Positions 3,814 through 57,300 of a DNA stretch of 64,000 nucleotides are shown here, piece after piece. Source of the stretch: Centroscyllium fabricii (lineage: Eukaryota). Made by a program: the position numbers and the translations under genes. The DNA lies in contig JBNRSN020000027.1 of NCBI GenBank assembly GCA_051313645.2, positions 53,320,001 to 53,384,000 on the forward strand, written 5' to 3'. A model generated the notes under the pieces. That model did not search any database and was not told the origin of the DNA. It saw only the letters and a list, made by a program, of their open reading frames with translations. Within the stretch, counting starts at the first letter, position 1. Each line of letters opens with the position of its first letter.

Positions 3814-4085
3814 TGATGCACAATCAATTACGCCAGTTGATGGTTAGATGTAATCGAGGCTTTTATTCACATAGAAGTGGACACAGGTCCGACGATCTTC
3901 CAAGCCAAAGTGAGAGCACTCAGTTGTGCTGGCACTTTTATACCCAGTGGGCGGAGCCTGGGGAGGAAGCCGGGGAGCGGAGTCCTCCCAGGTGAGTCCT
4001 CCCTGGCAAGGAGGCGTTACGTACAGTTACAGGGAGGGGACACAAGGGGGAGACATATATATACTATATACAGTGGTTTACCACA
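3814..4085 (-). mobile_element. Gypsy solo LTR
   Basis: Minus strand TGTGGTAAACC...TATAAAA...AATAAAAGCC...TGCATCA; 5-bp TSD GTACT (3809-3813, 4086-4090); termini match LTRs at 53731 and 55493. Confidence 0.85.
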
Positions 4086-9843: not shown

Positions 9844-10306
9844 GATCCCATGGGCTCTTCTTACCTTCTTGACCAGCCTCCTATGCGGGACTTTATCAAA
9901 AGGATGACTTTATGCTAGAATGGTGCTTGAGAGAAGGACGCATTTGACAGAAAGATAATTAAGTTCATTGCCATCCAATGCATAATTGTCAGGCATGCAC
10001 CGATGCAAGTTATACAACACAAGAATTTTAAGCTACAGGAAAAGTCCATTCGGTGTAATAAGGCCCTCTATTGTGACAACAGAAAGTGCTAGAAACACTC
10101 GGCAGGTCAGGCAGCATCGAGGAGAGAGAAACAGAGTTAATGTTTTGGGTCGAACCCATCGTCAGAACTCAAGTTTATTTTTGACTTATCTCAACCCCAC
10201 CCACCCACCTTCGCACCATATCGCTCAACTGCTGGGATATTGTGTAAGAGGAAAGACAAAGGTCATCTGAGAGTCAGCAGGCTGTTCGACCAGAGTGTTT
10301 TTAAAC

Positions 10307-10750
10307 TGACGTATCGTCAATAAGACTGAAAGATGAAGAGTTACCTTAACTAAAGGCTTTTATTCGCTAAAGAATGGAGCGTGTCTCGGCTGACCCCGCC
10401 TCTGACTCCTCCCCTGGGTCTCGGTACATAGGTGGCTGCTTGCCATTGTTGAAAAATTTAGCGAATAAAATTGACGTATCGTCAATAAGACTAAAAGACG
10501 AAGAGTTACCTTAACTAAAGGCTTTTATTCGCTAAAGAATGGAGCGTGTCTCGGCTGAGCTCCGGGCTGTACTGACCGGGGGATGGTAAGCAGCCACCTA
10601 TGTACCTAGACCCAGAGGAGGAGTCAGAGGCGGGGTCAGCCGAGGCAAGCTCCTGCAATCAGGTATTTACAGGTATGTACAGCGTTAACAGCAAGGTAGT
10701 TACAGGTACATTACGGTACTATGGCAGTGGTATAACACCGGTTTACCACA
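10307..10750 (-). mobile_element. 444-bp miniature LTR element: full LTR, short leader, rearranged partial second LTR
   Basis: TSD TAAAC (10302-10306, 10751-10755); full LTR 10472-10750 (TGTGGTAAACC...TACGTCA); duplicated LTR end 10307-10393. Confidence 0.8.
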
Positions 10751-11059
10751 TAAACCAATCGTGATCGTAGGCCTCAACTGAAGCCTTATTTTTCTTCCCG
10801 ATCAGTACCTATGGGAACTTCTATTAATCTGGCGGATCTGAGAGGTGAGGCAGAAGGTGAAAAGTCTCCTCCTCTCAATGACCAGGAATTGACGAATAAT
10901 AAGAAATTGGAAAAAAAATCAAGAAAAGGCAGGGGGAAGAAAAAGAAATAGAAAAAATGGAACAAGCTGTTCAGATGGTTCAATGAGTTTATCCAGTGGG
11001 TACTTTAATTCAGCAGACATTTCTCAAGCTGCAGTCTTAATTTCTTCATGTGACCGAGT

Positions 11060-14485: not shown

Positions 14486-14734
14486 TGTGGTAGACCGTTT
14501 ACCACCAATACTGTATTGTATATAGTTACCTCTTGTCCACCAGGGATCTACCTGGGATGCCTCAGCCGGCTCCGCCTCCTGGCTCCACCCACAGATTGAG
14601 GTATAAAGGTGGCAGCCCTGCTGACCTCGTGGCATTCCAGGATCTGATAGTGACAAGACCTGTACTCCAGTTCTTTGTTAATAAAAGCCTCAATTGCTTT
14701 ACTTCGTCGACTCACAGTAATTGACCGTGCATCA
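14486..14734 (+). mobile_element. Gypsy solo LTR inside an old CR1 3' fragment (~14190-14760)
   Basis: TGTGGTAGACC...TATAAA...AATAAAAGCC...GTGCATCA; TSD ATGGC (14481-14485, 14735-14739). Confidence 0.85.
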
Positions 14735-15135
14735 ATGGCCTGTTTCTGTGCTGTACAATCTACGTAGTTCTGTGAACTTCAAGCTTAATTTGGAAAGAAC
14801 TTTGAAACCCACGGAAAGGTACAGGTGTGGAAAGCTATGATGTTCCAACTGACTAGTCTCAAAGTAAAACGATATCAAATTACATTTAATCTCATATACG
14901 GTTCAAACTCACTCTTACTCACCAGCTGAAGAGGATGTGATTAACAAAAATGTTCTGTAATAACAATGGACTCGTATTCCAGTCAAGGGGCCTGGTTTTA
15001 CTTCATTATGTCCCCATTAGGAGGTGTCAACTTCTAACTAGCAAAATGAGAGATGGCAACTGTCAGTGATCACCGGCTTCATGATCATTGGACCAGTCAC
15101 TGTGTAAGGCAGCTAAAATATCATTTAAATCTTAC

Positions 15136-15601
15136 CTATGTAGAGGGAGGAATCCTTCCTATGAACGTGATCATCTATGTAGGACACACCAAGTGGTTGG
15201 ACTGGCGTAGCACCAATACCCAGTAGGACTTGGGCTCCAATTAGCAGTAGGTACATCATGTTGGTATTAGTCCTGTTCCTGCAGATTAATTTTGCTTCCG
15301 GTCCTTGGCTGCTCGTTGATACATTCCCAATGCACAGGTCCCTGCCTTCCATGCCCCAGGGGATCTCCCCAGTTTCATACTCATACTGGTGGGTGAGGAA
15401 CTCTGGCAGGGCAGACAGCAAAGCCCCCAGGGCCATCACGATGCCCCCGCATCCTATCAGACGTGGCCTGTGCCCCTTTGCCCCAAAGTAGCTCACAAAT
15501 AAAATCAGGGCCAAATTTCCGATCTCAAAACTGCTGGCTATGACACCGACATCAGCGCTCTGTAGGTTAAACCTCCTCTCCAGAGTCGTCAGCACGCTGA
15601 C
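15136..15601 (-). CDS. SLCO3A1: Internal coding exon (likely exon 2) of solute carrier organic anion transporter 3A1 (OATP3A1)
   Basis: Translates VSVLTTLERRFNLQSADVGVIASSFEIGNLALILFVSYFG...RPRLIGCGGIVMALG...ATPVQPLGVSYIDDHV...SSLYI(G), recognisable as OATP3A1; polypyrimidine tract and AG acceptor (15603-15602); GTAAG donor from 15135; 466 bp, phase 0 to 1. Confidence 0.93.
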
Positions 15602-16060
15602 CTGGACAAGGGGGGGAAAAGAAAGTCTGGAGTTATACAGGTGTTACACAAAGCATTTAACAGCAAGGTACTAAGCAGTCATTCAACATAGACAAATGCT
15701 ATAAGGCAGGGTAACCAGTATTGCAGAGAGCAAGCATGAAGCATCCCCCAGCTGATGCCTGGAGAAAGTTCCATGTTGCCCTGTGTGGAACTCTATACAA
15801 TGATGATGAATGAAAATAAGAGGTTGAAATAAGCATTTGGGCAGTCTCAATCCAGCTTCTCACTGTCATTGCCCATAGCGCTAAAACCTCCCCTAATTCG
15901 GCACTAAATGGCACAAAATGGGAGTACTTGCTCATAAATCTGTCGTTGGGATTAGAAAGATGTCACACTGGTTTCACCACAGAGGCTTGGAATTCAGCCT
16001 AAGCTGATGGGATGGAAGTCCACTCCGTCTGCTGGCTGTGGTTTCAAGTCCCATTCCAGA

Positions 16061-16401: not shown

Positions 16402-17214
16402 ATCTTCTATGTTCTATAGAATGTTAGGGGGTGGTGTGGTGTATGTGTACACAGTGCACTATATTGTGAAGCCCGGAACTTCTTGCTGTGTAAGAATACA
16501 TTGTATTGTAAAGGAGTGGGCTCCCAGTATAAATAAGGGGCGGAGCCACACTCCTCACTTCTGATGACGACCACCAGTAAAGACATGTTCATTTTATCTC
16601 TGGTGTCCTTGTATTATTATACGATATAATACAAACACAATAAATGGCGACGAGATAGCGGAACTAACCCAGCCTCACACTTTGTGGATTTCTGTTTTTA
16701 AAAAAAATGAAAGCAGAAGCATTCCAGAACCTTCCAGCAGTGGGTCTCGAGCACAGCTCTCCACCTGCTGTACAGACAGGCTGCAAAATCTCACTGAGCT
16801 AGGCCCAGCACAAAGAAAGACTGCTGAATCTTCAACCAGCCATCAAGGACCAGGCTTGGTTCTCCAGTTTCAGCGGACAGAGATGGACACAGAGGTGAAG
16901 CCAGCACACGGACTGGCTGCAGGTACAACCGTTTACTTTTTCTCAAAAACTCTCCCGACCGGCGGCACGACCAAGACAGCCTGCCTGAGTCACGGAGCGG
17001 GGAAAAACGGAAAATAAATAGGGTGGAAGTCGAGAAGCCATTGCCGGCAGCGAAGCGCTCAGCACTGATTTCTGAGCCAGGGAAAACATAGAAGGGTTTT
17101 GGCAGCGGGGCACAATTGGCACCGACCAGAAAGCCACGAACCCAGAGCAAAGGGTTGCAGGCTTGCAGGAGAGGACATTTTGATGTCTGTTATTTCTTTG
17201 GGGGATTCCGGAGA

Positions 17215-17736
17215 AAGATGGCAGCGCGTGTACACGCAGCGGCTTTGCGTCTCCGGAGGTAACGCTGTCCGCTGCAGTTCTGGGTCTGTTCGCTCGGAGA
17301 GGACGGCATGGTCGGCGAGGTGGTGTACCGGGGTCGGCGCGGCGGAGTTGTCGGAGCACCGGGGTGTCTGCGGTCGGAGTATCGGGGCGCACTGAGGCCG
17401 GCATGGTCGGAGCGCCGAGGCCGGAGGCCTTGAGGACTGAGTGTTGTAGCCGGAGCCTGAGCCTGCGAGGTCGCTGAAGTCGGGGCGCCTGGCCCTGTGT
17501 GGGTGGAGTGCCGGGGCCTTGGTCGCCGAGGTCGGAGCGCCGGAGCCTGCGTGGTTGTGACGCCGGAGGTCGGCGAGTTCGTATTGCCCGGGCCTGTATG
17601 GTTGGAACACCGGGACTGACAGACTGGGACTTCAGTAGAGGACATTTAACATCAGCGTTAACATTTGCAAAACTACATTTCGTTGTATGGTAAAAAATAG
17701 CTGTACAATGACAAATAAATTGAAAATTGAATTGAA
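17215..17736 (+). mobile_element. Non-coding GC-rich retroposon with Rex1-like tail, in the Gypsy leader
   Basis: Starts AAGATGGCAGCG, ends TGACAAATAAA(TTGAA)n; homologous to the reverse complement of 48759-49301. Confidence 0.7.
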
Positions 17737-17950
17737 GACGCCGTGCATAAGCTTTGGTGCAGCGGAGGCAATTCTGCAGACAGGACACTGGGCAAACCAA
17801 AGAAATAAATAAAGGCGCGAAAACCCTGGGGAAGAAGGACAAGGGCGGGGAAAAGTGCCATCTTTACTCAGAAAGAGTGGGAAACCCCGGTGAAGAAGGA
17901 CAAAGAGTGGGAAAAATTGCCATTTTGGAAAGGATAAAAGGGTTAAGAAA

Positions 17951-20900
17951 ATGGCCAGAAATAATAGCTTGGCAGCTTTTGACAGCGAGATTGAGAATTG
18001 GGACACATTTATCGACAGAGTCGAGATATATTGCCAAGCTAATGAAATTGATGACGATTAAAAGGCTATAACCCTTTTAAATGCGATGGGTGCGAAGACT
18101 TTCGGGCTTTTAAAAAGTTTAGCGGTGCCGACGAAACCGATTGACAAGACTTATACACAGATAGTCACATTGCTTAAGGAACATTTAAGCCCTGCACTGT
18201 TGATAATCGCTGAACGTTTTAAATTTCATCGAAGAGATCAACATAGAGGGGAGTCAAATGCGGAATAATTCTCTGAATTAAGGAAACTAGCAGACCATTG
18301 TCAATATGGAGACATGCGTACAGAACTGCTAAGAGATAGATTTGTATGTGGATTCGTCAGCGAGAGCACGCAAAAACTGCTCTTAACAAAGAAAGACTTC
18401 ACTTTGGAAACGGCTTTTAATATAGCCTTGTCCCACGAATCGGCAGATAAAAGTGCCGCGGAAATTCAACACCAACCACGGGAGCGGGAGTATGAGGCAA
18501 ACAAGATGTCTCAGAGATTTGATAGATGCTACCGATGTGGCAGAACAACACACGACCAGAAAAGCTGCTGGTTTAAAGACAAACAGTGCAGACAATGTGG
18601 CAAAATTGGCCACATTGCCAGGGTCTGTAGAGCGGGGAATAAACCGAGTAAAGAAAGTAAAATATCCCCAAAATGGACAAACACCAAGGTCCACAGAGTA
18701 ACCGAGGGTAGTTCAGACTCGGAGGACGAAAAGGGTAAAACCGACAACTCCAGCACAGACCTGGGCTCTCTTAAGCTGAACAAGGTCAGCGTAAATGACG
18801 ATCGTGAGACCATCTGGGTCAAACTTAACATTGAAAAAGTCCGACTCGACATGGAACTGGACACAGGGTCAGCCCTCACTATTATAAATAAGAGAGACTA
18901 CGAGCGGCTCTTTTCACATATTCCACTGAAACAGACGGAGATAACCTTGAAGACGTACACAGGACAGAAAGTATGCCCCAAGGGAAATTTAAAGTAACCG
19001 TACGTTACCGCGGTAGAAACATACCTAACATGTACATCTACGTCTTACAGAATGGAGGTCCGCCACTACTTGGACGTGAGTGGATCAGGAAAATCCAACT
19101 TGACTGGCGCTCCATCCAGGCACTGACCATGGAGGCCAACAGGGATGCTAGCGACAATCCAGCTAGACTGGCGGAGATACTGGACAGAACGAAAGAGGTA
19201 TTCCAGGAAGGACTAGGAACCCTTAGAGGTATGACCGCCACCATTAAGATAGAAAGAAATGCCACCCCGAAATTCTTTAAGGCAAGACCTGTGCCTTATG
19301 CCATTCACCCGGCCGTGGAGGCGGAATTAGAAATTAGAGAGCCTCGAGCGGGCAGGGGTGCTTTCTAAAGTCGAGTATAGCGAATGGGCCACGCCAATTG
19401 TACCGGTTTTGAAGAAACCCTTAAGGGATACACCGGGGGAACCACAAAAAGTTCGAATATGTGGGGACTTCAAAGTCACCGTTAACCCAGTACTGCATAC
19501 AATACAGTACCCCCTACCCAGAATCAAGGACATATTTGACTCATTGGCGGGTGGTAGACGATTCACCAAAATCGAGCTGGCCCAGGCATACCTACAAATG
19601 GAGGTTGAAGATAAATCCAAAGAGTACCTCACGATAAACACACACAAGGGACTATATAGATACAATAGGCTTGTCTTTGGGGTGGCATCGGCCCCACGAT
19701 GGACCAAGTATTACAAGGGATCCCGGGTACCCAATGCTACCTGGATGACATCCTGGTGACGGGAGAAAGCGATACAGAACACCTGGCGAACTTGGAACAG
19801 GTACTCACTCGCCTAAAGAAATATGGTCTCCAGGCAAATAGGGAAAAATGCAAATTCTTTAGCAAACGAATCGCATATTGTGGACACATCATAGATGAAG
19901 AAGGACTTCACAAGTCCCCGGACAAAATTGAAGCGGTAGTGCAGGTGCCAGCACCGGAAAATGTAATACAGTTGAGGTCTTTCCTCGGGTTGGTCAACTA
20001 CTACCACAAGTTCCTGCCGAATTTATCAACGATCTTACACCCACTCAATACCCTCCTTAAGTCAGGAGTGCAGTGGAAATGGAGTGAGGAGTGTAAAAAG
20101 GCATTCCAAAAATGTAAAGGGTTGATTACTTCTAAAGAAGTCCTGGCTCACTTAAACACAACCCTACCACTGAGGTTGGCATGTGATGCATCACCCTATG
20201 GAATCGGGGCAGTGTTATCTCACAAATGCTTGGACGGATCAGAAAGGCCAATAGCCTTCGCGTCCAGGCCATTAACCATGGCTGAGCGCAATTACACGCA
20301 GATCGATAGGGAAGCGCTCAGCCTAGTGTGGGGAGTGAAGAAGTTTAACCATTACTTGCACGGACAGAGATTTACTCTCTTAACGGATCACCAGCCCCTG
20401 GTGTCCATCTTCAACCCGACCAAAGGAGTGCCTGTAATGACAGCACAAAGACTCCAACAATGGGCACTTTTCCTAGGGGCTCATCAATATAACATCGAAT
20501 ACAAGGGCACGAAGCAACATGGAAATGCCGATGGCCTTTCACGCCTACCACTGCCTGCAGTTGAAGAAGCACCAGTAGTAGATCCGGTAGAGATTTTCCA
20601 TGCAACTATTGTTGATGCCCTACCAGTCACCAATGCCGCAATAGAGACAGAGGCTAGGAAGGACTCGACACTGTCGCGGGTGTATGATCTAACGGTATTC
20701 GGATGGCCAGCACAGGGCGCCCACTGTTGCCAGCATTTTCTGCCAGAAGAGAACAACTGTCAGTGTGCCGAGGAACCCTAATGTGCGGCACATGGGTGAT
20801 CATTCCTCCCAAACTCCAAGAAAAAGTTCTCAAAGAACTCCATGAAGGACATCTGGGGGGAGTAAAGATGAAAAGCCTCGCCAAGGCATACGTTTGGTGG

Positions 20901-21930
20901 CCATGCATAGATAAACAGATAGAGGACCTGGCCAAAGGATGCAATGGATGCCAGAAGGTCCAAAACGCGCCGCCGCCAGGGCCCCTACATCCGTGGGAGT
21001 GGCCCTCCTCTCCTTGGCAGAGGGTACACATAGACTTTGCTGGTCCATTCATGAACTCAATCTTCCTTATCGCTGTCGACGCCCACTTGAAATGGCCGGA
21101 GGTCATCAAGATGTCCTCTACCACTACAGAGAATACCATTTCGGTCTTGAGGACTATCTTCGCCAGAAATAGATTGCCAGAGCAAATATGCTCAGATAAT
21201 GGGCCTCAATTCGTGGCGGAGGAATTCAAAAATTTCATGAAAATTAATGGAATCAAACACTTCACGTCAGCACCTTATCACCCAGCCACAAATGGTCTGG
21301 CTGAATACTTCGTCCAAACCTTCAAGAAAGGTATGAAGGCAATGTGTGACGACAACAGGAAATTGCAGCATAAACTTGACTGTTTTTTGTTTGCGTACAG
21401 AAATACGGCGCATTCTGTCACAGGGCAGCCACCTTCGATACTTATGTTCAACCGACGGTTAAGGTCAAAATTGGACCTGGTGAAACCAAACATAAGGAGG
21501 GAGGTAGAAGACCAACAGTACCAGAGGGTATATGAGGAACCCATGAAACCCACTAGAAATTTTCAGGTAGGGCAGCCGGTGTTAGCCCGAGACTACTGGA
21601 CGACGGAAAAGTGGCAACCCGGAACGATAAGTGAACATCCGGGGCCACTCACATATACCGTGAATGTGGGAGACAACACAGTACGCAGACACGCCGACCA
21701 ATTATTAAGCAGATCTCAGTCACACACTCAGATTGAAGAGCACAACAGATCGCATGCATATGCTCAGACGGAAGAATACAGCAGCAAGACTGAAGACCTC
21801 ATTGAGGTGCTAGACGATACAAATCATCCTTTAGATGACAGGGATACTAGCCCACATAGAGAGCTGGAAACAAGGGAACGATGATATCCCGTGAGGGCTC
21901 AAAGGCCTCCAAAAAGGCTGAACTTGTAAT
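17951..21930 (+). pseudogene. Disrupted gag-pol of the Gypsy element
   Basis: ATG 17951 with in-frame stops at 18059 and 18266; two CCHC knuckles (CYRCGRTTHDQKSC, CRQCGKIGHIARVC); protease LDTGS; RT YLDD; RNaseH CDASPYG; integrase HHCC, DFAGP, SDNGPQF, NGLAE; frameshifts near 18990, 19340, 19700, 20710. Confidence 0.93.
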
Positions 21931-22593
21931 GACTATACACGGACAACCAAAGCAATTATCATCATCGATTGTTTACTTTCTTTTACAAATGGATGTTATC
22001 CATAAAGACAGTAATTTCAAAAGTAGTGTATTGTTTATGGTTAACAAAGATTGTATTGTATATAGTTAACAAAGATTGCTGTAAAAACTAAAAGGGGAGG
22101 AGTGTGGTGTATGTGTACACAGTACACTATATTGTGAAGCCCGGAACTTCTTGCTGTGTAAGAATACATTGTATTGTAAAGGAGTGGGCTCCCAGTATAA
22201 ATAAGGGGCGGAGCCACACTCCTCACTTCTGATGATGACCACCAGTAAAGACATGTTCATTTTATCTCTGGTGTCCTTGTATTATTATACGATGTAATAC
22301 AAACACAATAGCTGGGATAGCTAGATCTTCGTATCGGGCAATGCTCGGCACAACATTGAGGGCCGGTGGGCCTGTACTGTGCTGTACTGTTCTATGTTCT
22401 ACGTTAACCTGGTCAAGCCCCTTAAGAATCTTATCTTTCAATTAGATCACCTCTCATTCTTCTAAACGCGAGGGAATATAGGCCTAGTCTACTCAACCTG
22501 TCCTCATAGGGAATTCCCCTCATTGCAGGAACCAGTCTAGTGAACATTCGCCGACCCCTTATTCTGAGACTGTGACCCCTGGTTCTAGACTCT

Positions 22594-26650: not shown

Positions 26651-26744
26651 ATGCAATGATGTGGAGGTGCCGGTGTTGGACTCGGGTGGACAATTGTAAG
26701 AAGTCACACAACACCAGATTATAGTCCAACAGTTTTATTTGAAA

Positions 26745-26781
26745 TCACAAGCTTTCGGAGCGCAGCTCCTTCATCAGGTGA
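26745..26781 (-). ncRNA. Putative minimal type I hammerhead ribozyme
   Basis: Minus strand UCAC-CUGAUGA-A-GGAGC(UGC)GCUCC-GAAA-GCUU-GUGA. Confidence 0.65.
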
Positions 26782-27007
26782 AGTGACGAGATTCATTTAA
26801 ACACCGCATATATAGAGCGAGAGAACAATGTAATCTCTCCAACTGTTCAACATCACACCTCAGCAGAGAGACATTCATAGCAATCAAAGGTGTGAATGGT
26901 GTTTTAACAGATCAGTCAGGCAGGCACCACCCTGAGATCAATGAGGTGCAGTCACTAAGGGTCAAATCTCCCTCTATATATGCTGTGTTTAAATGAATCT
27001 CTTCACT

Positions 27008-27044
27008 TCACCTGATGAAGGAGCTACGCTCCGAAAGCTTGTGA
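27008..27044 (+). ncRNA. Putative minimal type I hammerhead ribozyme
   Basis: UCAC-CUGAUGA-A-GGAGC(UAC)GCUCC-GAAA-GCUU-GUGA: stem I UCAC/GUGA, stem II GGAGC/GCUCC, palindromic stem III AGCU. Confidence 0.65.
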
Positions 27045-27192
27045 TTTCAAATAAAACTGTTGGACTATAATCTGGTGTTGTGTGACTTCTTATACTTATG
27101 GAAGTTGAGTACAAAAGGAAGCCCCATAAGTATGAGTTGGAATCACTTAAAAAAATACACGAACACATGAAATAAAAAACTTTTTAAATTAC

Positions 27193-27550: not shown

Positions 27551-28061
27551 AGGTTCATTTTGATTATGCATGCTTTTACCAGGTGCAAGAATTTCACGGT
27601 CATTCATCGGGCAGAAGTTGGGCAAATAGCACAACTCTCCGCCCGCAGGGACCCTTTTCCCGGGAATGCGGATCATCTGTCAAGAGAATTTTTGACAGAT
27701 CGCACGTTCCGGGTTTTCGCGCAAGTGCTTCACATGACTAAACCCAGAACTTGCACGGCCCCTTCGGGCGCGTGTGCTCATTGTACACACCCGTGGGGGT
27801 CGGAAGATGTGTCAGCCTTCGACTTTGTGCTGTCTGTCCTGGAGTGGAACTTGAACCTGCAGCTTTCTGAGATTAAAGTGAGAGCGCAAAACAGTTAATG
27901 CATTTCAAAGACATTCAATGTATTAGAAGTGTCTTGAGATGTATCTGAGACCTTATAAGGCACCAAATTCTTCTTCTTAAATTGGCAGCTTACTCAGGAA
28001 GGACACTGGATTGAATGCCGGGTGTGTGAAATGGAAGAATGTTGTTAGATACCCAACTGAC

Positions 28062-31000
28062 ACTCAGCCTGGGAGTGAGATACTCAGCCTGGGAGTGAGA
28101 TACTCAGCCTGGGAGTGAGATAACCAGCCTGGGAGTGAGATACTCAGCTTGGGAGTGAGATACTCAGCCTGGGAGTGAGATACTCAGCCTGGGAGTGAGA
28201 TACTCAGCCTGGGAGTGAGATACTCGGCCTGGGAGTGAGATACCCGGCCTGGGAGTGAGATACTCAGCCTGGGAGTGAGATACCCAGCCTGGGAGTGAAG
28301 ATACCCAGCCTGGGAGTGAGATACTCAGCCTGGGAGTGAGATACTCCGCCTGGGAGTGACGATACTCCGCCTGGGAGTGAAGATACTCAGCCTGGGAGTG
28401 AGATACTCCGCCTGGGAGTGAGATACTCAGCCTGGGAGTGAGATACTCCGCCTGGGAGTGAGATACCCAGCCTGAGAGTGAAGATACTCCGCCTGGGAGT
28501 GAGATACTCCGCCTGGGAGTGAGATACTCAGCCTGGGAGTGAGATACTCCGCCTGGGAGTGAGATACTCAGCCTGGGAGTGAGATACTCAGCCTGGGAGT
28601 GAAGATACTCAGCCTGGGAGTGAGATACTCAGCCTGGGAGTGAGATACCCAGCCTGCGAGTGAGATACTCAGCCTGGGAGTGAAGATACTCCGCCTGGGA
28701 GTGAGATACTCAGCCTGGGAGTGAGATACCCGGCCTGGGAGTGAGATACTCAGCCTGGGAGTGAGATACTCAGCCTGGGAGTGAGATACTCAGCCTGGGA
28801 GTGAGATACTCAGCTTGGGAGTGAGATACTCAGCCTGGGAGTGAGATACTCAGACTGGGAGTGAGATACTCAGCCTGGGAGTGAGATACCCGGCCTGGGA
28901 GTGAGATACTCAGCCTGGGAATGAGATACTCAGCCTGGGAGTGAGATACCCAGCCTGGGGGTGAAGATACCCAGCCTGGGAGTGAGATACTCAGCCTGGG
29001 AGTGAGATACTCAGCCTGGGAGTGAGATACTCAGCCTGGGAGTGAGATACTCAGCCTGGGAGTGAGATACCCAGCCTGGGAGTGAGATACTCAGCCTGGG
29101 AGTGAAGTACTCAGCCTGGGAGTGAGATACTCAGCCTGGGAGTGAGATACCCAGCCTGGGCGTGAAGATACCCGGCCTGGGAGTGAGATACCCAGCCTGG
29201 GAGTGAGATACTCAGCCTGGGAGTGAGATACTCAGCCTGGGAGTGAGATACTCAGCCTGGGAGTGAGATACTCAGCCTGGGAGTGAGATACCCAGCCTGG
29301 GAGTGAGATACTCAGCCTGGGAGTAAGATACTCAGCCTGGGAGTGAGATACTCAGCCTGGGAGTGAGATACCCAGCCTGGGAGTGAGATACTCAGCCTGG
29401 GAGTGAAGATACCTGGCCTGGGAGTGAAGATACCTGGCCTGGGAGTGAGATACCCAGCCTGGGGGCTGAGATACCCAGCCTGGGAGTGAAGATACTCAGC
29501 CTGAGAGTGAAGATACTCAGCCTGGGAGTGAGATACTCAGCTTGGGAGTGAGACACTCAGCCTGGGAGTGACATACTCAACCTGGGAGTGAAGATACTCA
29601 GCCTGGGAGTGAGATACTCAGCCTGGGAGTGAAGATACCCAGCCTGGGAGTGAGATACTCAGCCTGGGAGTGAGATACTCAGCCTGGGAGTGAAGATACC
29701 CAGCCTGGGAGTGAGATACTCAGCCTGGGAGTGAGATACTCAACCTGGGAGTGAAGATACTCAGCCTGGGAGTGAGATACTCAGCCTGGGAGTGAGATAC
29801 CCAGCCTGGGAGTGAAGATACCCAGCCTGGGAGTGAGATACTCAACCTGGGAGTGAAGATACTCAGCCTGGGAGTGAGATACTCAGCCTGGGAGTGAGAT
29901 ACTCAACCTGGGAGTGAAGATACTCAGCCTGGGAGTGAGATACGCAGCCTGGGAGTGAGATACACAGCCTGGGAGTGAGATACTCAGCCTGGGAGTGAGA
30001 TACCCAGCCTGGGAGTGAGATACTCAGCCTGGGAGTGAAGATACCCAGCCTGGGAGTGAAGATACCCAGCCTGGGAGTGAGATACTCAGCCTGGGAGTGA
30101 GATACTCAGCCTGGGAGTGAGATACTCAGCCTGGGAGTGAGATACCCAGCCTGGGAGTGAGATACTCAGCCTGGGAGTGAGATACTCAGCCTGGGAGTGA
30201 GATACTCAGCCTGGGAGTGAGATACCCAGCCTGGGAGTGAGATACCCAGCCTCGGAGTGAGATACTCAGCCTGGGAGTGAGATACTCAGCCTGGGAGTGA
30301 AGATACCCAGCCTGGGAGTGAGATACTCAGCCTGGGAGTGAGATACTCAGCCTGGGAGTGAGATACTCAGCCTGGGAGTGAGATGCTCAGCCTGGGAGTG
30401 AGATACCCGGCCTGGGAGTGAGATACCCGGCCTGGGAGTGAGATACTCAGCCTGGGAGTGAGATACTCAGCCTGGGAGTGAGATACCCGGCCTGGGAGTG
30501 AAGATACCCGGCCTGGGAGTGAGATACCCAGCCTGGGAGTGAGATACTCAGCCTGGGAGTGAGGTAATCAGCCTGGGAGTGAGATACTCAGCCCGGGAGT
30601 GAGATACCCAGCCTGGGGGTGAAGATACCCGGCCTGGGAGTGAGATACCCAGCCTGGGAGTGAGATACTCAGCCTGGGAGTGAGATACCCAGCCTGGGAG
30701 TGAGATACCCAGCCTGGGAGTGAGGTACTCAGCCTGGGAGTGAGATACTCAGCCTAGGAGTGAGATACTCAGCCTGCGAGTGAGATACCCAGCCTGGGAG
30801 TGAGATACTCAGCCTGGGAGTGAAGATACCCGGCCTGGGAGTGAGACACCCAGCCTGGGAGCTGAGATACCCAGCCTGGGAGTGAAGATACTCAGCCTGA
30901 GAGTGAAGATACTCAGCCTGGGAGTGAGATACTCAGCTTGGGAGTGAGATACTCAGCCTGGGAGTGAAGATACTCAGCCTGGGAGTGAAGATACCCAGCC

Positions 31001-32172
31001 TGGGAGTGAGATACTCAGCCTGGGAGTGAGATACTCAGCCTGGGAGTGAAGATACCCAGCCTGGGAGTGAGATACTCAGCCTGGGAGTGAGATACTCAAC
31101 CTGGGAGTGAGATACTCAGCCTGGGAGTGAGATACTCAGCCTGGGAGTGAAGATACCCAGCCTGGGAGTGAGATACCCAGCCTGGGAGTGAGATATCCAG
31201 CCTGGGAGTGAAGATACTCAGCCTGGGAGTGAGATACTCAGCCTGGGAGTGAAGATACCCAGCCTGGGAGTGAGATACTCAGCCTGGGAGTGAGATACTC
31301 AGCCTGGGAGTGAAGATACCCAGCCTGGGAGTGAGATACCCAGCCTGGGAGTGAGATATCCAGCCTGGGAGTGAAGATACTCAGCCTGGGAGTGAGATAC
31401 TCAGCCTGGGAGTGAAGATACCCAGCCTGGGAGTGAGATACTCAGCCTGGGAGCGAGATACCCAGCCTGGGAGTGAGATATCCAGCCTGGGAGTGAGATA
31501 CCCGGCCTGGGAGTGAGATACCCGACCTGGGAGTGAGATACTCAGCCTGGGAGTGAGATACTCAGCCTGGGAGTGAAGATACCCAGCCTGGGAGTGAGAT
31601 ACTCAGCCTGGGAGTGAGATACCCAGCCTGGGAGTGAGATACCCAGCCTGGGAGTGAAGATACCCAGCCTGGGAGTGAGATACTCAGCCTGGGAGTGAAA
31701 TACTCAGCCTGGGAGTGAGATACCCGGCCTGGGAGTGAGATACCCGGCCTGGCAGTGAGATACTCAGCCTGGGAGTGAGATACTCAGCCTGGGAGTGAGA
31801 TACTCAGCCTGGGAGTGAGATACCCAGCCTGGGAGTGAAGATACCCGGCCTGGGAGTAAGATACCCGGCCTGGGAGTGAGATACCCAGCCTGGGAGTGAG
31901 ATACTCAGCCTGGGAGGGAGATACTCAGCCTGGGAGTGAGATACTCAGCCTGGGAGTGAGATACCCAGCCTGGGAGTGAAGATTCCCGGCCTGGGAGTGA
32001 GTTACCCATCCTGGGAGTGAGATATCCAGCCTGGGAGTGAGATACCCGGCCTGGGAGCTGAGATACTCAGCCTGGGAGTGAGCTACCCAGCCTGGGAGTG
32101 AGGTACCCAGCCTGGGAGTGAGATACTCAGCCTGGGAGTGAAGATACCCAGCCTGGGAGTGAAGATACCCAG
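28062..32172. repeat. Homogeneous tandem array, 20-bp unit with 21-bp variants, ~200 copies
   Basis: (ACTCAGCCTGGGAGTGAGAT)n with ACCC/ACTC and GTGAAGAT variants; ~4 more units at 32800-32889. Confidence 0.97.
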
Positions 32173-32799
32173 TAGCATGGTCGTTGCGCATTTTGACCGG
32201 GAAAAAAATGGTAGTAAGCTGATTTTTGCACCAGATGAGCAGAATGTGCCATAAAACAACATATCCAAAATCCGCTAAAATCTTCTTTGGGGAAAAAATA
32301 TTATCCAAGATGAGATTTTTAGTGCCTTTGAAAAGGTGTAGGGGTCAAATAATTTAATTTTGTACTTATCTAAATCACTATAAATTCTTCTAATTCTTCT
32401 ATAATTTACTCTGGGTCGAGAAGATATGGTGGTTTTAGATCCGTTGTAGTTATGGTATTTCATGCGTAAAATGCATTTTTTGGGCTTTTATGAATTGTAT
32501 TTAGGTTCCAGTCATCGCCCCCGCCATTTTTTAAAATAATTTTTAACTACTAAGTCTTTGTATTTTCTTTAATGAAGGTGAATTAACCCCCAAAGTCAAA
32601 TAAAAATCTTACCTTTGACATTTTCGATACAAAAATATGCAAAATATTCCAACGCTCATTAAAAATTTTCCCCAGAGCGGAATTTGGCGGATTTTGGATA
32701 TGTTGTTCTATGATATATACTAATCATCTGGTACAAAAATCAGCTTACTACCATTTTTTTCCGGGTAGCACCACTCTTTCATCCTCAACAACCATACTA
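32173..32799. mobile_element. AT-rich non-autonomous DNA transposon with long imperfect TIRs (Academ-like)
   Basis: Termini TAGCATGGTCGTTG / CAACAACCATACTA; ~100-bp imperfect TIRs; 3-bp TSD CAG (32170-32172, 32800-32802); splits the array. Confidence 0.7.
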
Positions 32800-33556
32800 C
32801 AGCCTGGGAGTGAGTTACCCATCCTGGGAGTGAGATATCCAGCCTGGGAGTGAGATAACCGGCCTGGGAGTGAAATACTCAGCCTGGGAATGCTTGATAC
32901 TGACACCAGGTGCCTGAAATGAGAAAGTGTTGCCTTCTCAAGTACCAACATCCCACAGCTTAATAAGCAGAACATTTGCACAGAAACCGATATACAACCA
33001 CGCAAACAGAATTATTGAATCAATGTACACTCCTGAGAATGGCATGTTAGCAAAATGTACATCTGCACCATCATGGGACCAGTGTAAAATTGTTGCATTT
33101 GTTTTAAATTATAATGATATTTTTAAGTGTGAGTACCCTTTGGGTTTTTTATTAATGCCAGATTCCACTGAGGATTTTTCAAATAGCAACAGTAATGGGA
33201 ACTAATACTGCAGCATCAGTGACACAAATTCATTCAATGGGCTAGCAAGGGTCTTGACATTGCTCGCAGTTGCCAAAAAAATCAGTGATGTGTCCTTATC
33301 TCCATAGCAACAGCTGCTAAGTGGTTGTCTCACAAAAACACCTTCACTGGAAGTCCTTCCCTCGTGAAAGCTGTAGGCTTCCCTCCCTCACAGTGGCCTA
33401 GAAATTGGATCAGACAGTGCCCGTTCGTCATTCAAAAAATTGGCATTGATATGGCGTGCATGCTCAGTCTACACTGGTAGAGCGCTGCGTGTCAAATTGG
33501 TTAGTGCGCTCCGGAGTCGTCCAGTGAGCTCACCTGGAAATAACGTTAGACCCGTA

Positions 33557-35905: not shown

Positions 35906-37871
35906 CTCTAAAGCACAATGAAAGCTTCGAACCCTGGAACACAGGCAGAGGCATGTCACGCTGCTCAGCCCTAAAGTGTCATCTTGTGAAATCACGCTCC
36001 CAGCATGGAGGTTTGCCATCTGAGAGTGCACAATGCGCGCTTAAGACAACCGTACTCATGACGTTCCCTCCATTAATTTGAATCGCAGTGAGCCAACTCC
36101 TGAGGGTGAGGTTGTACGAGCTCGAGAGACTACAAGCACACATACTTCAATTTAGTCAATAGACGGGTTATCTGCTGCTGTTACCTTGTCAGCTATCTAT
36201 GGAGTCTAATCCTAAATTAATCTCGCCAATTTATATCAATCTCAAACACTGATCTCAACTGTAAATTAAATCAGCGAGCTGCTAATGCGGAATTACTATG
36301 ACATAACTAAACTGCCTTTGTAACCTCTGTTATTTATCTCATCAATTATTCCTATCTGCTAATTATTTGCACATTCAACAGGGGTAATTTTGACTTTTGG
36401 GTAGTCAAAATTACCCCTAGTAAATGGAAATGCGAATCGGGTGGGATGAATAATGGACAACTGAATCGATATTGCTCGTTTTAGACCATCACCCAAAATC
36501 AAGATTAACCCCGATGTTTAGATTTAAGTGCTGCAAACTATGATTCTAAGGTTAGTTCATGATTTTGTTGTCTGACTTCTTCGGTAATTGGCAAGAAATG
36601 GTTAATTCATTCAGCAGCTTGTGTGGATTCCAATGGGAGGTTGGGAATGTAAATGCTAATGTAAGCCAAACTGGTTGAAGTATGGCAGTCTGGAGATCCC
36701 AAGTGTAGGTATCCTTCACTCCTAGGCATAAACTGGGTGGTAAAACCCAGATACTTTCTCATCAAGGAACTAAGGTGTTAAGGATTCAACTACTGCCCTT
36801 AATGAATAGTCTTGTCAAGTTATCCATTCCACTGTTCTTACATCTTATAGAAGTAGTTGAAGATAATAAGTGGGATAGAAATGGTTAACCTAGAGCACTA
36901 GTTAAACCAGAATTACTTAACAAGGGGACATAGGTAGAAACTGGTAAAGGGTAAGCTCAGGACTGGAGAACAGCTAACATAGTACCATTATTCAAGAAGG
37001 GTAGTAGGGATAAACCAGGGAATTACAGGCCAGTGAGCCTAACATCAGTGGTAGGGAAATTATTGGAAAAAATTCTGAGGGACAGAATTAGTCTCCACTT
37101 GGAGAGGCAAGGATTAATCAAGGAAAGTCAGCATGGCTTTGTCAAGGGAAGATCATGTCTGACCAATTTGATTGAATTTTTCGAGGGGGTGACTAGGTGT
37201 GTGGATGAGGGTAGTGCAGTGGATGTGGTATACATGGATTTCAGCAAGGCTTTTGATAAAGTTCCTCATAGGAGACTGGTATAAACTCGCACCTTATATT
37301 ACTGTATTATCTGGTGTAAACGCGCAATCAATACACGACATCCCCCTTTTCCTTGGAAACAAACTTGCAGTTTACAAACATTTTCTTACAACACTGTACA
37401 ACTTGTTTGGTTTATAAACCTTTTACACACTTGTGTCTTATAACAATAACTATATAATTCCATATTTACACTATACATTTAACATCCCCCCATGCAGTTC
37501 TTGCACAGTTTATGTTGTGACATAATCAGACAACCTTTGGAGTTTTCTTTTAATCCTTTGAGGTCTGGCTGTATTGGGTGTGGTAATATTGAACAGACTT
37601 CCGGGGGAAGACTAAGGGGTGAACTCTGTACATGTCACTTCCTGTTAGTATAAATACTGGAACTGCCCAGTATGGGGAGAAAGCTTCACCTGGAAGCATG
37701 GTAAAACTTGTCTTTGTACATAGTGATAATGTAGGGGATTTTGCTTTAAGTTATTGATGTATCAGACTCCATTATTACATCATTGGGTATGTCTGACATG
37801 TTGTTGTCCATGGGTATTGCCTGTGTCAGAGTGGTGTGTGTGTCAGGATCTACTATACAGTCCTCAGTCCT

Positions 37872-39494
37872 TTGTAGCTGTTGTTCCAGTATCTGTTTAT
37901 GGCTTTGACATTCATCCTCACCAAGATTTCTGGAATGTTCTGCTTTCTTCAATTCTGCTTGAAGAGCTAGATGAGCAGTGGTGGGTTGGTTTAGTATTTC
38001 ACACAATTTATGATTCATCAAGCTGTTTCCTCAGCACCTTGATCTCAGTATGAAGCTGTGCATTTTCTGTCTTCAACGGTGCATAGTTTGCAACGTCCTT
38101 TAACTTTTCATTTAGCAAATCATTCTGCTTCATTAACAGACAAACTTGGGATTTAGCTGCATCCAGTTCTACCTCCAACTTCTTAGATTGAGCATGGACA
38201 TATTCAAGTCCCTCTCCTTTGGAATGGATGATAGCAGACTCTTCGTGTAATCGAGCTGCCGCTGCTTCAATTCTTTCCTCATTTGCTGTCACTTTCTCCA
38301 GATTATCTTCTTTACGTAACAGTTCAGATTGGGCCCTGTTTTCCTGTGCTCCAGAAGAGCTGCACCCCCACGAAGGGGGGTCAGAAATGCCTCGTGGGGG
38401 TGCAGCTCGGGTGATTACCAGAAACGTGAACTTCCTGTGCTGATGGGCAAGGGGCTTCAGCTTCCTACCCAGGAAGACTTTGAGCTGCAGACTTCCTGTA
38501 GGCAGCTGCTCAAAATGCGGGTGTATCACGTGGGCAAGTCTCTCTTGAGCTGCACATATAAAAAGCAGTCTTAAGAGGCTGCAGGCAGCTTTGAGAAGTG
38601 AAAAAAACACGTTTAAAGTTTTAAAAAAATGGATTCCTTTGAGGATATTTGTCTGTGGTCTTTCAGCTTGTAAATGGGTAGGGTTTTATATTATTTGGTG
38701 AAAGTGAAAAAAAATCGGGATTTGAACGCGATGTCAGCAGCTGTGATGGCCATCGGAGCTGCTGACATCGCGTTCAAATCCCGATTTTTTTTCACTTTCA
38801 CCAAAAGATATAAAACCCTACCCATTTACAAGCTGAAAGACCACAGACAAATATATCCAAAGGAATCAATTTTTTTTTAACTTTAAACGTGTTTTTTTGA
38901 CTGGAGCAGAAAAAAACCCTAACATCAGAAAAGGCAGAAACTTAAAAAACCAGCTTCCTAGAAACTGAAAAAAAACAAAAAAAAGGTGCTTCCCTACCTG
39001 ATATTCTTCATCCCGCAGGCCGATTCTGTGCTTCGTTCGGGGGGAAAGCCGACCTCAGTGGGCGTGGCTTGCACCCCGCACCAAAAAAAAGACGTCCCCT
39101 CCGCTGGAAAAAAACCCGGCATTTCCCACAGGAAGTTGCCGTCGGAAAAAAAAAAAAGTACGTGCGCGTGTGCCGCGGGTGCTCGGGAGCGCGCACCAGC
39201 GGCAAATGGGCCACAGGAAGACATGGCCCAATAACAGCTGCTATACTGATGTTGCAAATCCTCTCTGCTGTTTTGCAAAGTAGAAAGTTTCTCCTCCCTG
39301 CATAAAATTTCAATGTGTATGTTTCCATACATCTCAATTGGTTCTTCTATTTGTTTGCGATATACAAGCAGTTTTGTTTCCCAAAAGTCGTCTTGCACGT
39401 TTGCTGGATGAAGTGCTGCATATTCTTCATCAACCATTTGAAGTTTATCAACAATAGATTCCTTGCACTATGGAATGCAGCTGGTCTGAGTTTC
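37872..39494 (-). pseudogene. OFD1: Captured fragment of an OFD1-like coiled-coil gene (interrupted by a MITE at 38331-39229)
   Basis: ETQTS...SIVDKLQMVDEEY...ETKL..YRKQIEE; KKLEVELDAAKSQ..LLMKQNDLLNEKLKDVANY..LKTE...LRKQLDES; QP......LQAELKKAE...HKQILEQQLQ are collinear with vertebrate OFD1 as I recall it. Confidence 0.8.
38331..39229. mobile_element. PIF/Harbinger-like MITE with a ~300-bp internal palindrome
   Basis: TIR GGGCCCTGTTTTCCTGTG / CACAGGAAGACATGGCCC; flanks ATT/AAT; palindrome 38602-38897. Confidence 0.75.
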
Positions 39495-51610: not shown

Positions 51611-51730
51611 AGTGAAGAGATGCATATAGGCACAGCATATATAGTCAGAAATTGCTGTGATTCTCTGCTGGGGTGTGATAAAGGGCAGTTGGAAAAGATT
51701 ATATGCTGTGCCTATGTGCATCTCTTCACT

Positions 51731-51767
51731 TCACCTGATGAAGGAGCAGCGCTCCGAAAGCTTGTGA
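51731..51767 (+). ncRNA. Putative minimal type I hammerhead ribozyme
   Basis: UCAC-CUGAUGA-A-GGAGC(AGC)GCUCC-GAAA-GCUU-GUGA. Confidence 0.65.
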
Positions 51768-52414
51768 TTTCAAATAAAGCTGTTGGACTGCAAGCTGGTG
51801 TTGTGTGACTTCATAAATTTGTCCACCCCAGTCCAACACCGGCATCTCCGCATCATGTACTTACCAGCAGAGATCTATAACGAAATGAGAACGAAAGTGC
51901 ACCTCCACGGATGGCAGTGACCCGTACCTTGATCTGCATTCATCTTACGTCTGCACAATCAATACCATTTCGCTTCTTCAACTGTTTAAATCAAACGGAG
52001 ATGGGATTTGTCTCCGCGGCTGGCTCAGGATGCGGAGGTGCTGTGATATTCAAACAGCCGAAGCTGAAAGGCCTCGGGTTTGATTGCTGATCTGTGCTGA
52101 TTGTAGCTAGAGTGGCAGTAAAGGGCCCCGATGCATGGGACGGCTGAGGTTTTGTAATATGAATCATCTCACACTAGATTAGGGTCTCCCACATGGCAGC
52201 TGTTTCTCATTCTGCCAGCGCATTTCACACTTTACACTGCATCCATTTAATAAACATCTAGAGCGGTCTTTTGTCTCTTTGCTTGTCCTATCACCATCTC
52301 GTCTCGTCTTGAATACCTCTTAATGTCTCTGCACTTCTCTTTTGTTCTGTCATCCCCATGTCCCAGCCCTCAAACTGGCCTTTTAATCTGTTTCATTTCC
52401 TGTGTTTTCTCCTG

Positions 52415-53730: not shown

Positions 53731-55748
53731 TGTGGTAAACCACTGTATTGTATATATTGTATTATACTTCACTATACCTGTTTGCATGTAACCTGCCTGG
53801 GCTTGCCTCTGCTGACTCCACCTGTGGCTCCTCCCCCGGACCCAGGTATAAGGCTGGCCGTCTCCCAACCCCCCTTCAGTCCTAGACCAGTCGATCAGCA
53901 GAGGCATGATCCTGTTCTTTAGCTAATAAAAGCCTATCGTTTATTCACATAACTTCTAGTCTTTTGAGGTTATTGATAGTGCATCAATTTTATTAACTAA
54001 TTTTTTTACCATGGAGCAAATCTTGAAACCTGCAACGCTTCAGCTGGATCCTCAATCGCCAGATGCTGCTAACACTTTTGAGCACTGGCTGAACTGCTTC
54101 GAAGCGTTCCTTCATGCCTCCAGCGTGACCGTCCGAACCGACGCCGACAAGCTGCTGGTCCTCAACTCCCGGGTGGGCCCTCGAGTGTACTTGCGAATCA
54201 GAGACGCTACGCCGTACAACGAAGCGATGCTTCCGATTTCGCCGTGGCCGCCACCCTTAACCAGGCAGGCGGTCCCGTGGCCTTCTTCTCACTCACCCTC
54301 CAGGGCCCCGAAATTTGACACTCCTCTGTCGAGAAGGAGGCCCAGGCCATTGTGGAAGCCGTACGGCAGTGGGGGCATTACCTGGCTAGTAGACGATTTA
54401 CCCTGCTGACTGACCAACGTTCAGTTGCCTTTATGTTCAATAATAAGCAGTGGGGCAAAATCAAAAATGGCAAGATATTGAGGTGGAGAATCAAACTCTC
54501 CACCTATAATTACGATATCTTGTACCGACCCGGGAAGCTCAATATCACCCAGATATCACGCGGTACATGTGCCAGCACACAAGTAGACCGACTGCAGGCC
54601 TTCCACACGGGGGTCACCAGGTTCTTCCACTTTGTCAAGGCCCGCAACCTACCCTACTCCATCGAGGAGGTCAGGACCATGACCAGGAACTGCCAGGTCT
54701 GCGCGGAGTGCAAACCACACTTCTATCGGCCAGACAGAGCACACCTGATGAAGGCCACCCACCCTTTCGAGCGCCTCAGCGTCGACTTCAAAGGGCCCCT
54801 CCCCTCCTCTGACCGCAACGTGTACTTCCTCAATGTCATTGATGAGTACTCACATTTCCCTTTTGCCATCCCCTGTCCGGACATGACCTCCGCCACGGTC
54901 ATTAATGTGCTCCACTCAATCCGATCGCTCCTTTGTACGGCCACCAACGCTACCCCTCACGAAAAACTGTTATTCTTCCCCAGGAAGTCCGCCTCAGGGG
55001 CCTCGCTGCCGTCATGGCTGACATCCCCGGGACCCGTCCTGCTCCGGAAGCATGTGAGGGGCCATAAGTCGGACCCCCTGGTCGAAAGGGTCCACCTCCT
55101 CCATGACAACCCTCAGTACGCCTACGTGGCGTTTCCTTACGGGCGGGAGGACACGGTCTCCATCAGAGATCTGGCACCCTCAGGAGCCCCCGAGACCAAC
55201 ACAGCCCACCACCCCGCACCTTCACCCCCCCACCGCTACCCACGATGCACCAGTACCACAGTATGTTGCCCCAGCCCCTGTGGACAGCACGTGGCCATGC
55301 ACCCGCCAACTCGACGCGGCTGAGGACGACACTCCGGACCGCTCCAGACCGCCCAGGATTCAACACCAGAACCTGCACCACGACCAGCTTTACGACGGTC
55401 GCAGCGGTGGACCAGACCCTCCGAAAGACTCAATTTATAGTGACTGTTAATCTGCTTCACCCCGCCGGACTCTTTTTTAAACAGGGGGTGAATGTGGTAA
55501 ACCACTGTATTGTATATATTGTATTATAGTTCACTATACCTGTCTGCATGTAACCTGCCTGGGCATGCCTCTGCTGACTCCACCTGTGGGTCCTCCCCCG
55601 GACCCAGGTATAAGGCTGGCCGTCTCCCGACCCCCGTTCAGTCTTGGACCAGTCGATCAGCAGAGGTATGCTCCTGTTCTTTAGCTAATAAAAGCCTATT
55701 GTTCATTCACATAACTTCTAGTCTTTTGAGGTTATTGATGGTGCATCA
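53731..55748 (+). mobile_element. Internally deleted Gypsy element (gag start fused to late RNaseH and integrase)
   Basis: 256-bp LTRs 53731-53986 and 55493-55748 (~13 differences by eye); TSD CGCGC; gag MEQILKP...HWLNCFE; FTLLTDQRS, CQVCAECK, SVDFKGP; no protease or RT. Confidence 0.92.
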
Positions 55749-56447: not shown

Positions 56448-56699
56448 TGTGATGAACCTTTTAGTGTGGTTCACACTGCGATTATTGTATATAGTTTGGG
56501 TTAATATATCTGTTAATATCTGTACATTTCTGTAAGGACCTGTACCGGCTGACCCCGCCTCTGGGTACTAGTATAAAGGAGAATGCTCCGCCCACTTATC
56601 TCTCATTCCGGGCGGGCTCATCGGAGACACGGTTCTGTTTCTTGTAAATAAAAGCCTTTTGTTGAGATCAAGCTGCCGTCTTTAATTTGAGGCTTCACA
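56448..56699 (+). mobile_element. Gypsy solo LTR inside a CR1-group fragment
   Basis: TGTGATGAACC...TATAAA...AATAAAAGCC...TCACA; TSD GTCCC. Confidence 0.85.
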
Positions 56700-57053: not shown

Positions 57054-57300
57054 GGATGCGCAATTCAATTACGCCAGTCTTTGGTGAAAAGTAATCGAAG
57101 GCTTTTATTAGCTAAGAACTAGACCTGGTCCGCGATGAGTCCGCCCGGAATGAGAGTCAGGTGGGCGGAGCATCCTCCTTTATACTCATACCCGGAGGCG
57201 GGGTCAGCTGGTCCAGGTCCTTACAGAAAGGAACAGATTTATTAGCACAAACTATATACAATTATAACACAGTGTGAACCACACTAAATGGTTCACCACA
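57054..57300 (-). mobile_element. Gypsy solo LTR
   Basis: Minus strand TGTGGTGAACC...TTAGCTAATAAAAGCC...GCATCC; TSD AGGTA (57049-57053, 57301-57305). Confidence 0.85.

Follow-up and report, generated by a model that had tools for sequence, protein, structure and literature searches.

A lineage of Ty3/Gypsy retrotransposons in the genome of Centroscyllium fabricii carries, directly behind the 5' LTR, a short motif complementary to a stretch of its own LTR that ends in the poly(A) hexamer, and this pairing is real, widespread and conserved. Self-priming of some kind is very probable for these elements. Judged from the genomic sequence, the form that we favour, and consider somewhat better than an even bet, is a single cut of the RNA right behind AAUAAAA, after which the capped front piece of ~50 nt would serve as the primer of minus-strand DNA. 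The original prediction that priming needs no tRNA and uses a segment lying far past the transcript start was backed by covariation, by stops of faulty copies at the start site and by the inheritance of the two LTR halves.

The pairing was located in two elements of the window, the whole 64-kb stretch of DNA analysed here, and the features of these elements and of the related solo LTRs are as follows.

10472..10750, minus strand: 5' LTR of family A, 279 nt, TG...CA, with a 5-bp target duplication at 10751-10755 and 10302-10306
10599..10604, minus strand: TATA-like box TACATA of family A, recognised by sequence; the initiator A lies 31 nt downstream, and the spacing is the same across families
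10571..10575, minus strand: initiator TCAGT of family A, with the predicted transcription start at 10573 (from motif and spacing)
10523..10536, minus strand: partner strand of family A in R, ending in the AATAAA hexamer (10529-10524) and one A
10457..10470, minus strand: putative primer-binding site of family A, complementary to the partner over 14 nt and separated from the LTR by 1 nt
10376..10446, plus strand: inverted U3 copy, 71 nt, from the gag ATG, 93% identical to 10583-10653; a rearrangement specific to this copy
10307..10393, minus strand: terminal LTR piece, the last 87 nt of the LTR, closing the insertion
53731..53986, plus strand: 5' LTR of family B, 256 nt, with TATA-like box 53847-53852, initiator A 53878 and partner strand 53918-53931
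53988..54000, plus strand: putative primer-binding site of family B, 12/13 pairing with one private change
54011..55477, plus strand: gag-pol of family B, internally deleted, with the gag start, the RNase H end and part of integrase
55478..55492, plus strand: polypurine tract of family B, at the same position as in full-length copies
55493..55748, plus strand: 3' LTR of family B, sharing 95% identity with its 5' counterpart, with a 5-bp target duplication
3814..4085, minus strand: solo LTR of family C, with a 5-bp duplication
14486..14734, plus strand: solo LTR of family D
56448..56699, plus strand: solo LTR of a sister of family F
57054..57300, minus strand: solo LTR of family F

As first noted, the minus-strand motif at 10470-10457 is the exact reverse complement of 10536-10523 over 14 nt and starts 1 nt behind the LTR, which ends at 10472 in this copy, and 53988-54000 pairs with 53919-53931 at 12 of 13 positions. 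The mismatch in the 53.7-kb copy is private to that copy, and full pairing was observed in most relatives. We infer that 10523 is the 3' end of the primer, with the cut falling between 10523 and 10522; the base equivalent to 10573 is the stop point of aberrant run-through copies in sister families. The supposed minus-strand element at 10307-10750 lacks coding sequence and is a relic composed of the LTR, one A, the primer site, an ATG, the 71-nt inverted U3 piece and the last 87 nt of the LTR; in other family A copies gag continues past this point, without the inverted U3 piece of 10376-10446. An Rfam search of 10250-10800 returned three matches only, all far under the gathering score, of which the microRNA match stems from the inverted repeat. 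The suspected kinship of the solo LTRs at 3814, 14486, 56448 and 57054 was confirmed, since all belong to sister families whose full-length members pair likewise (C, D and F); for the 56448 type (cluster 9), the pairing was found only in run-through copies.

A TGG-starting primer site, complementary to the 3' end of a tRNA, is absent from every family of the lineage. Two other Gypsy elements with such a site were found in the window (near 16647, plus strand, and 40739, minus strand), not three. The first is a full-length element of another lineage (16434-22310, plus strand) with 209-nt LTRs 98.6% alike, encoding a gag zinc knuckle, RT, RNase H and integrase. The second (~37300-40960, minus strand) is a deleted element with gag and protease, inside which lies an unrelated insertion with a 153-nt spacer-less inverted repeat (38597-38902). 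The window also contains a host exon with similarity to the organic anion transporter (OATP) family (15128-15643, minus strand; E 4e-51), a long array of a 20-nt tandem repeat (~28000-33000), and a repeat with inverted arms around a CTGATGA...GAAA core (26656-27097 and 51700-51856), which we take to recall the minimal hammerhead ribozymes of Penelope-like elements.

Full-length members of the lineage are 4.3-4.9 kb long, have LTRs of 238-290 nt and encode gag, protease, RT, RNase H and integrase. The order protease-RT-RNase H-integrase, the TG...CA LTRs, the polypurine tract and the target duplication are those of Ty3/Gypsy elements, and the best relative with a solved structure is Ty3 Gag-Pol. 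In most families gag starts 14-35 nt past the LTR; in family F (L173-L200), its N-terminal sequence differs from the one found in the sister families. At the RT active site, 94 of the 123 proteins listed (P0001-P0123) have the motif YxDN and not YxDD, and no chromo family was detected in the four integrase-bearing proteins scanned (E<=0.01). The closest named proteins come from two rays (78-82% identity), followed at 47-63% identity by named proteins of sea anemone, whipworm and shrimp and by many unnamed contigs; no relative was confirmed among viral contigs, and an ESM Atlas search with gag matched generic retrotransposon gag clusters, none of them clade-named. A quick tree (62 RT-RNase H segments, midpoint root, rows without named references) separated the 58 rows of the lineage with SH-aLRT 100 from four other Gypsy rows, which include the TGG-type element of the window, and stem-bearing loci were present in two of the lineage's large subgroups.

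A pattern running from the hexamer through GCC and the LTR end to the T-rich motif, with both variable letters (hexamer and primer site) left unfixed, matched 143,636 places in the 7.2-Gb genome, against none for the reversed control. The layout at the matches is LTR-CA, one A, and a 13-15-nt complement of an LTR stretch ending in AATAAAA or ATTAAAA. Among the 100 matches listed of the 143,636, ATTAAA occurred with TTTAAT in 33 of 34 cases and AATAAA with TTTATT in 66 of 66. In a set of 123 de-duplicated ordinary copies (loci L001-L230), in which stem positions 7-13 were unfixed by the selection, these seven positions pair completely in 85 copies, at six in 33 and at five in 5, and pairing drops to 54% at position 14 and 15% at position 15. 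For all 11 LTR alleles occurring at least twice in this set, the commonest primer site is the exact complement, whereas 100,000 permutations gave a mean of 1.0 and a maximum of 8. The predicted covariation between the post-LTR bases and the AATAAA region was thus observed, complementarity being kept across families both in these 11 alleles and in the listed matches. A complement of at least 13 nt arose in none of 20,000 Markov-resampled LTRs (maximum 12), which together with the covariation rules out chance complementarity.

The stem was predicted in all eight natural copies folded, with a mean pair probability of 0.56-0.99, and in seven of them a second helix begins at or next to GCC. The partner lies in cis, 45-60 nt from the primer site, and its folding onto that site was predicted with high probability. 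The arrangement extends to metagenome relatives: of 80 loci fetched, 22 had a usable 5' end, and 12 or 13 of 13 positions pair in 15 of these (about eight families), the best partner being picked over a window and with no formal control; two further loci pair at 10 positions, and five at nine or fewer or lack the motif. Relatives of invertebrate type also retain the stem. In many of the metagenome loci a short hairpin with the ends GCCT..AGGC or ACCT..AGGT was present right behind the partner.

Copies in which reverse transcription appears to have run through the primer site were collected, as in L188, where the LTR is followed by a 56-nt antisense LTR copy in place of the usual leader. Two patterns yielded 859 matches (control 8) and 160 matches (control 0). 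From these 1,019 matches, 180 were fetched and 179 parsed; excluding 7 duplicate junctions and 19 copies that either had no extension or could not be assigned left 153 run-through copies. A TATA-like box together with an initiator defined the start site, and the TATA rule was widened after the first pass had missed one large family; the boxes lie 27-33 nt before the initiator, and the predicted start lies ~50 nt upstream of AATAAAA. Among the 114 copies that reach the start site, 17, from seven LTR clusters, end on the initiator A or on the base preceding it, and 28 stop within -4 to +1, although junction microhomology blurs these ends by a few bases. The background stop rate is 1.0% per nt in R and 0.3% in U3, and the excess at the initiator is significant (P=9e-11). 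Among the 17 initiator stops, 10 have C as their first unmatched base, vs 12 of 74 stops elsewhere (P=7e-4); an extra C is expected when RT copies the cap G. The whole left LTR is present in 13 of the 17 and gag-pol is rejoined in 14 (11 in sense), and these copies look like plus-strand strong-stop DNA that was copied too far and then re-annealed.

A transcription start has no meaning for DNA that folds back on itself, and the stops would mark a capped RNA end ~50 nt upstream of the 3' end of the partner; from these genomic fossils we infer that transcription starts there, at the TATA-like box and initiator. Fold-back of DNA as the sole cause of the fossils was rejected, as it predicts neither the initiator stop nor the added C and cannot produce the chimeric locus L350 described below. 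The cap stops could also have arisen where a plus-strand end annealed to the capped end of a second RNA. The run-through patterns are blind to stops right at the edge of the partner, where a second, shorter form of the primer may occur. A larger share of the copies (84 of 114) goes past the start site beyond -10, and the LTR 5' end was reached by 51 of the 153. Before de-duplication, 12 of 54 LTR-end copies entered the polypurine tract; of the 11 measured, five stop within 14-21 nt and six extend 53-200 nt into internal sequence. The first of these groups is accounted for by fold-back of plus-strand DNA and the last by a jump to a second RNA, and copies passing the start site count against a capped primer in that they need one or the other. 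Private variants common to the run-through copy and its own LTR did not separate the classes.

For the cut itself, 63 copies with an assignable truncated left LTR were examined. Left ends lying exactly between AATAAAA and GCC (offset 0 or -1) were observed in eight, with 0.73 expected (P=1e-6); these ends could alternatively come from a DNA hairpin opened at the loop base. If the RNA is cut behind the hexamer, strong-stop DNA would lack the 5' half of R, and that half would have to pass on together with U3. In a comparison of 14 related subfamilies, the distance in 5' R tracked that in U3 (rho 0.76, Mantel P=2e-4, partial 0.74), while for the part behind the hexamer the values were 0.21, P=0.06 and 0.02. 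The corresponding correlations were 0.68 vs -0.12 in the eight closer subfamilies and 0.57 vs 0.44 in all 22 (partial 0.41 vs 0.07), the pairs in this test being non-independent and the segments short. The chimera L350, a single two-family case, combines the U3 and 5' R of one family with the U5, primer site and run-through copy of another, and its run-through ends 7 nt past the initiator; fold-back on its own LTR could not have produced it.

Mismatches between primer site and partner were used to look for further chimeric LTRs. They gave 403 matches, of which 60 were fetched, and none of the 58 distinct ones was a clear chimera: 51 were point changes or ambiguous and seven had no close reference. 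No mosaic emerged when 193 LTRs were scanned automatically. One subfamily (L552, L555, L557 and L576-L578) has a recurrent partner/primer-site mismatch at one position and could be the progeny of one parent with two differing LTRs. Separately, L380 has two inverted U3 ends within a 5-bp target duplication, where the integrase apparently used a palindromic product.

In the mechanism that we favour, the R segment ending in the poly(A) hexamer would pair with the 13-15 bases behind the 5' LTR, and the RNA would be cut once between AAUAAAA and GCC, by analogy with Tf1 presumably by the element's own RNase H, an enzyme with a reported role in Tf1. The capped front piece of ~50 nt would then prime minus-strand DNA, so that strong-stop DNA would consist of U5 and, from R, just the ~15-17 nt that follow the hexamer, and would jump to the 3' end of the RNA through this ~15-17-nt overlap. 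The 5' half of R would be inherited like U3. Plus-strand DNA would copy the primer and rebuild the primer site, by which the two strands of the stem would stay matched, and its synthesis would occasionally continue to the cap; the extra ~38 primer bases would normally be kept out of the DNA by a step outside the model. As a likely side effect, the primer-site duplex would hide the 5' poly(A) signal and leave the 3' copy, which has no partner, free. The joint reading is of a widespread animal Gypsy lineage with more than 140,000 insertions in one genome, in which one duplex hides the 5' poly(A) signal, marks the cut behind AAUAAA and makes the capped ~50 bases the primer, with 5' R joining U3 and transfer running through only ~15-17 bases, as a second, independent Gypsy self-priming with a geometry unlike that of Tf1. 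We give this whole an even chance of being right.

The copies that pass the start site would be produced directly, together with those reaching the LTR 5' end and entering the polypurine tract and internal sequence, if the primer were instead R from the 3' end of the genomic RNA, either the same molecule or another one, trimmed to AAUAAAA and annealed to the primer site. Deadenylation and 3' trimming back to a duplex need no endonuclease, which is a further merit of this explanation. However, an uncut template would let strong-stop DNA run to the cap and keep 5' R with U5, which the inheritance data contradict. Neither the left ends at GCC nor the cap stops with an added C are predicted, and the cis partner, 45-60 nt away and with high predicted pairing, would need displacing. 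The LTR-half inheritance and the cap stops thus speak against a far-end primer, which we consider unlikely. Priming in trans by short capped RNAs from the abundant solo LTRs or from 5' LTRs, trimmed to AAUAAAA, would account for the cap stops and the added C. Yet the run-through copy came from the LTR's own family in 87 of 88 copies compared and from another family only in L350, where it matches the U5 donor, and the travelling of 5' R with U3 is unaccounted for, making this route improbable.

A geometry as in Tf1, with the packaged RNA beginning at the partner, its first 13-15 bases as primer and the TATA-like box and initiator serving another RNA, would agree with a known system and with the ordinary copies, in which pairing covers no more than 13-15 bases and breaks off sharply at position 14-15. 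The fossil stops cluster instead at the initiator 50 nt upstream, with TATA-like boxes 27-33 nt before it, and we consider this geometry more improbable still.

Within this genome the hexamer is strictly constrained. Against 143,636 places with AATAAA or ATTAAA, double changes to ACTAAA or AGTAAA were found at 3 and a non-A first base at 19, of which 6 were complementary, equal to chance, whereas stem positions adjoining the hexamer differ freely between families. A poly(A) fossil of an RNA 3' end, with the tail 15-17 nt behind AATAAAA, was also found, as the single element-derived case from two search patterns (four other places were unrelated). From this constraint and the fossil, the hexamer is probably a working poly(A) signal, present in R at both ends of the RNA. 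Retroviruses need a means to silence the 5' copy of the signal, according to the available part of one report (PMC12789967). Here the complementary strand occurs only at the 5' end, and it is plausible from the sequence that it would hide the 5' site and leave the 3' copy free. In 9 of the 15 stem-bearing metagenome loci, however, the canonical hexamer is absent from the stem. Masking is therefore not universal across relatives; of the two functions, priming seems to be the conserved one and masking an addition. That the duplex only masks the signal while a host RNA, a tRNA half or other, does the priming fits the strict hexamer and the structural masking described for HIV-1 in the sources available, but is the least credible account and very improbable: TGG is absent, the LTR set holds 60 distinct primer-site 14-mers, no 3'-anchored tRNA match exceeds 5 nt (14 distinct tRNAs of five types, a very small sample), the stem is kept in relatives without a canonical hexamer, and the faulty-copy fossils are unaccounted for.

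Tf1 of fission yeast is the only element for which self-primed reverse transcription has been proven; for its chromovirus kin and a single plant copia lineage it has been deduced. The present lineage, which by protein similarity spans rays, sea anemone, shrimp and a nematode, appears not to be a chromovirus. If internal-cut priming is true, self-priming has arisen again in another form, priming is linked to the choice of poly(A) site, and a dominant vertebrate transposon is freed from control by tRNA fragments. With nothing but the genome sequence, the faulty copies offer a readout of where the RNA starts and where it is cut. Annotation software that requires a tRNA primer site would overlook the lineage or put it in the wrong class.

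No account of this pairing was found in the literature searched, which mostly excluded subscription papers and Repbase reports; the available parts of PMC3601003, PMC3587641, PMC6238403, PMC8556966 and PMC2774666 contain no match to it. Elements without a TGG primer site are known in dictyostelid Skipper, fungal GalEa and bivalve biv-TRIM, which lack the tRNA site in other ways (PMC5006619, PMC6934838): in the accessible text, a complement in the left LTR is not reported for Skipper, and the hairpins of GalEa and biv-TRIM sit inside the internal region. The plant TAR elements (Houba, Osr-1) share a self-priming predicted, in the excerpts available, from complementarity between LTR and primer site (PMC6317226, which predicts it for Tcn1 as well); unlike the present lineage, they belong to another superfamily, Ty1/copia, and the excerpts do not place the complementary stretch with respect to the start site or the poly(A) signal. 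With the 5' poly(A) hairpin of HIV-1 the lineage shares base pairing that could hide AAUAAA in the 5' LTR. As far as the sources at hand describe it, the HIV-1 hairpin is local, present at both ends, assisted by U1 snRNP and combined with a tRNA primer, whereas the masking strand here lies outside the LTR, at the 5' end only, and is the primer site itself. The Cigr-1 clade comprises elements of ~4.2 kb with 245-nt LTRs and one ORF in marine animals. By this description, the present lineage resembles it in size; a description of the Cigr-1 primer was not found in the accessible literature.

The closest parallel is the Tf1/sushi group. According to the parts of the reports available, Tf1 and Tf2 of S. 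pombe, Tj1, Tosmo and the Tf1/sushi and Tcn1 chromoviruses share with the lineage the Ty3/Gypsy domain order, a primer site right behind the 5' LTR that is complementary to the element's own LTR in place of a tRNA site, and extra helices beside the duplex. The primer is freed by a cut on the Tf1 side, as proposed here, and the cDNA end of Tf1 receives a copy of the primer site (PMC11042837). For Tf1 and its relatives, it is the RNA 5' end that acts as primer, and a chromodomain is present in all (bioRxiv 2022.12.06.519325, PMC4600332, in the portions available). In the present lineage, by contrast, the partner ends ~50 nt past the start and includes the poly(A) hexamer, so that the primer would extend to it from a capped 5' end that the fossil stops place ~50 nt upstream and the pairing bases would not be the first nucleotides of the transcript, and the four integrase-bearing proteins have no chromodomain. 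The lineage would work like Tf1 and yet departs from two features that define the Tf1/sushi group.
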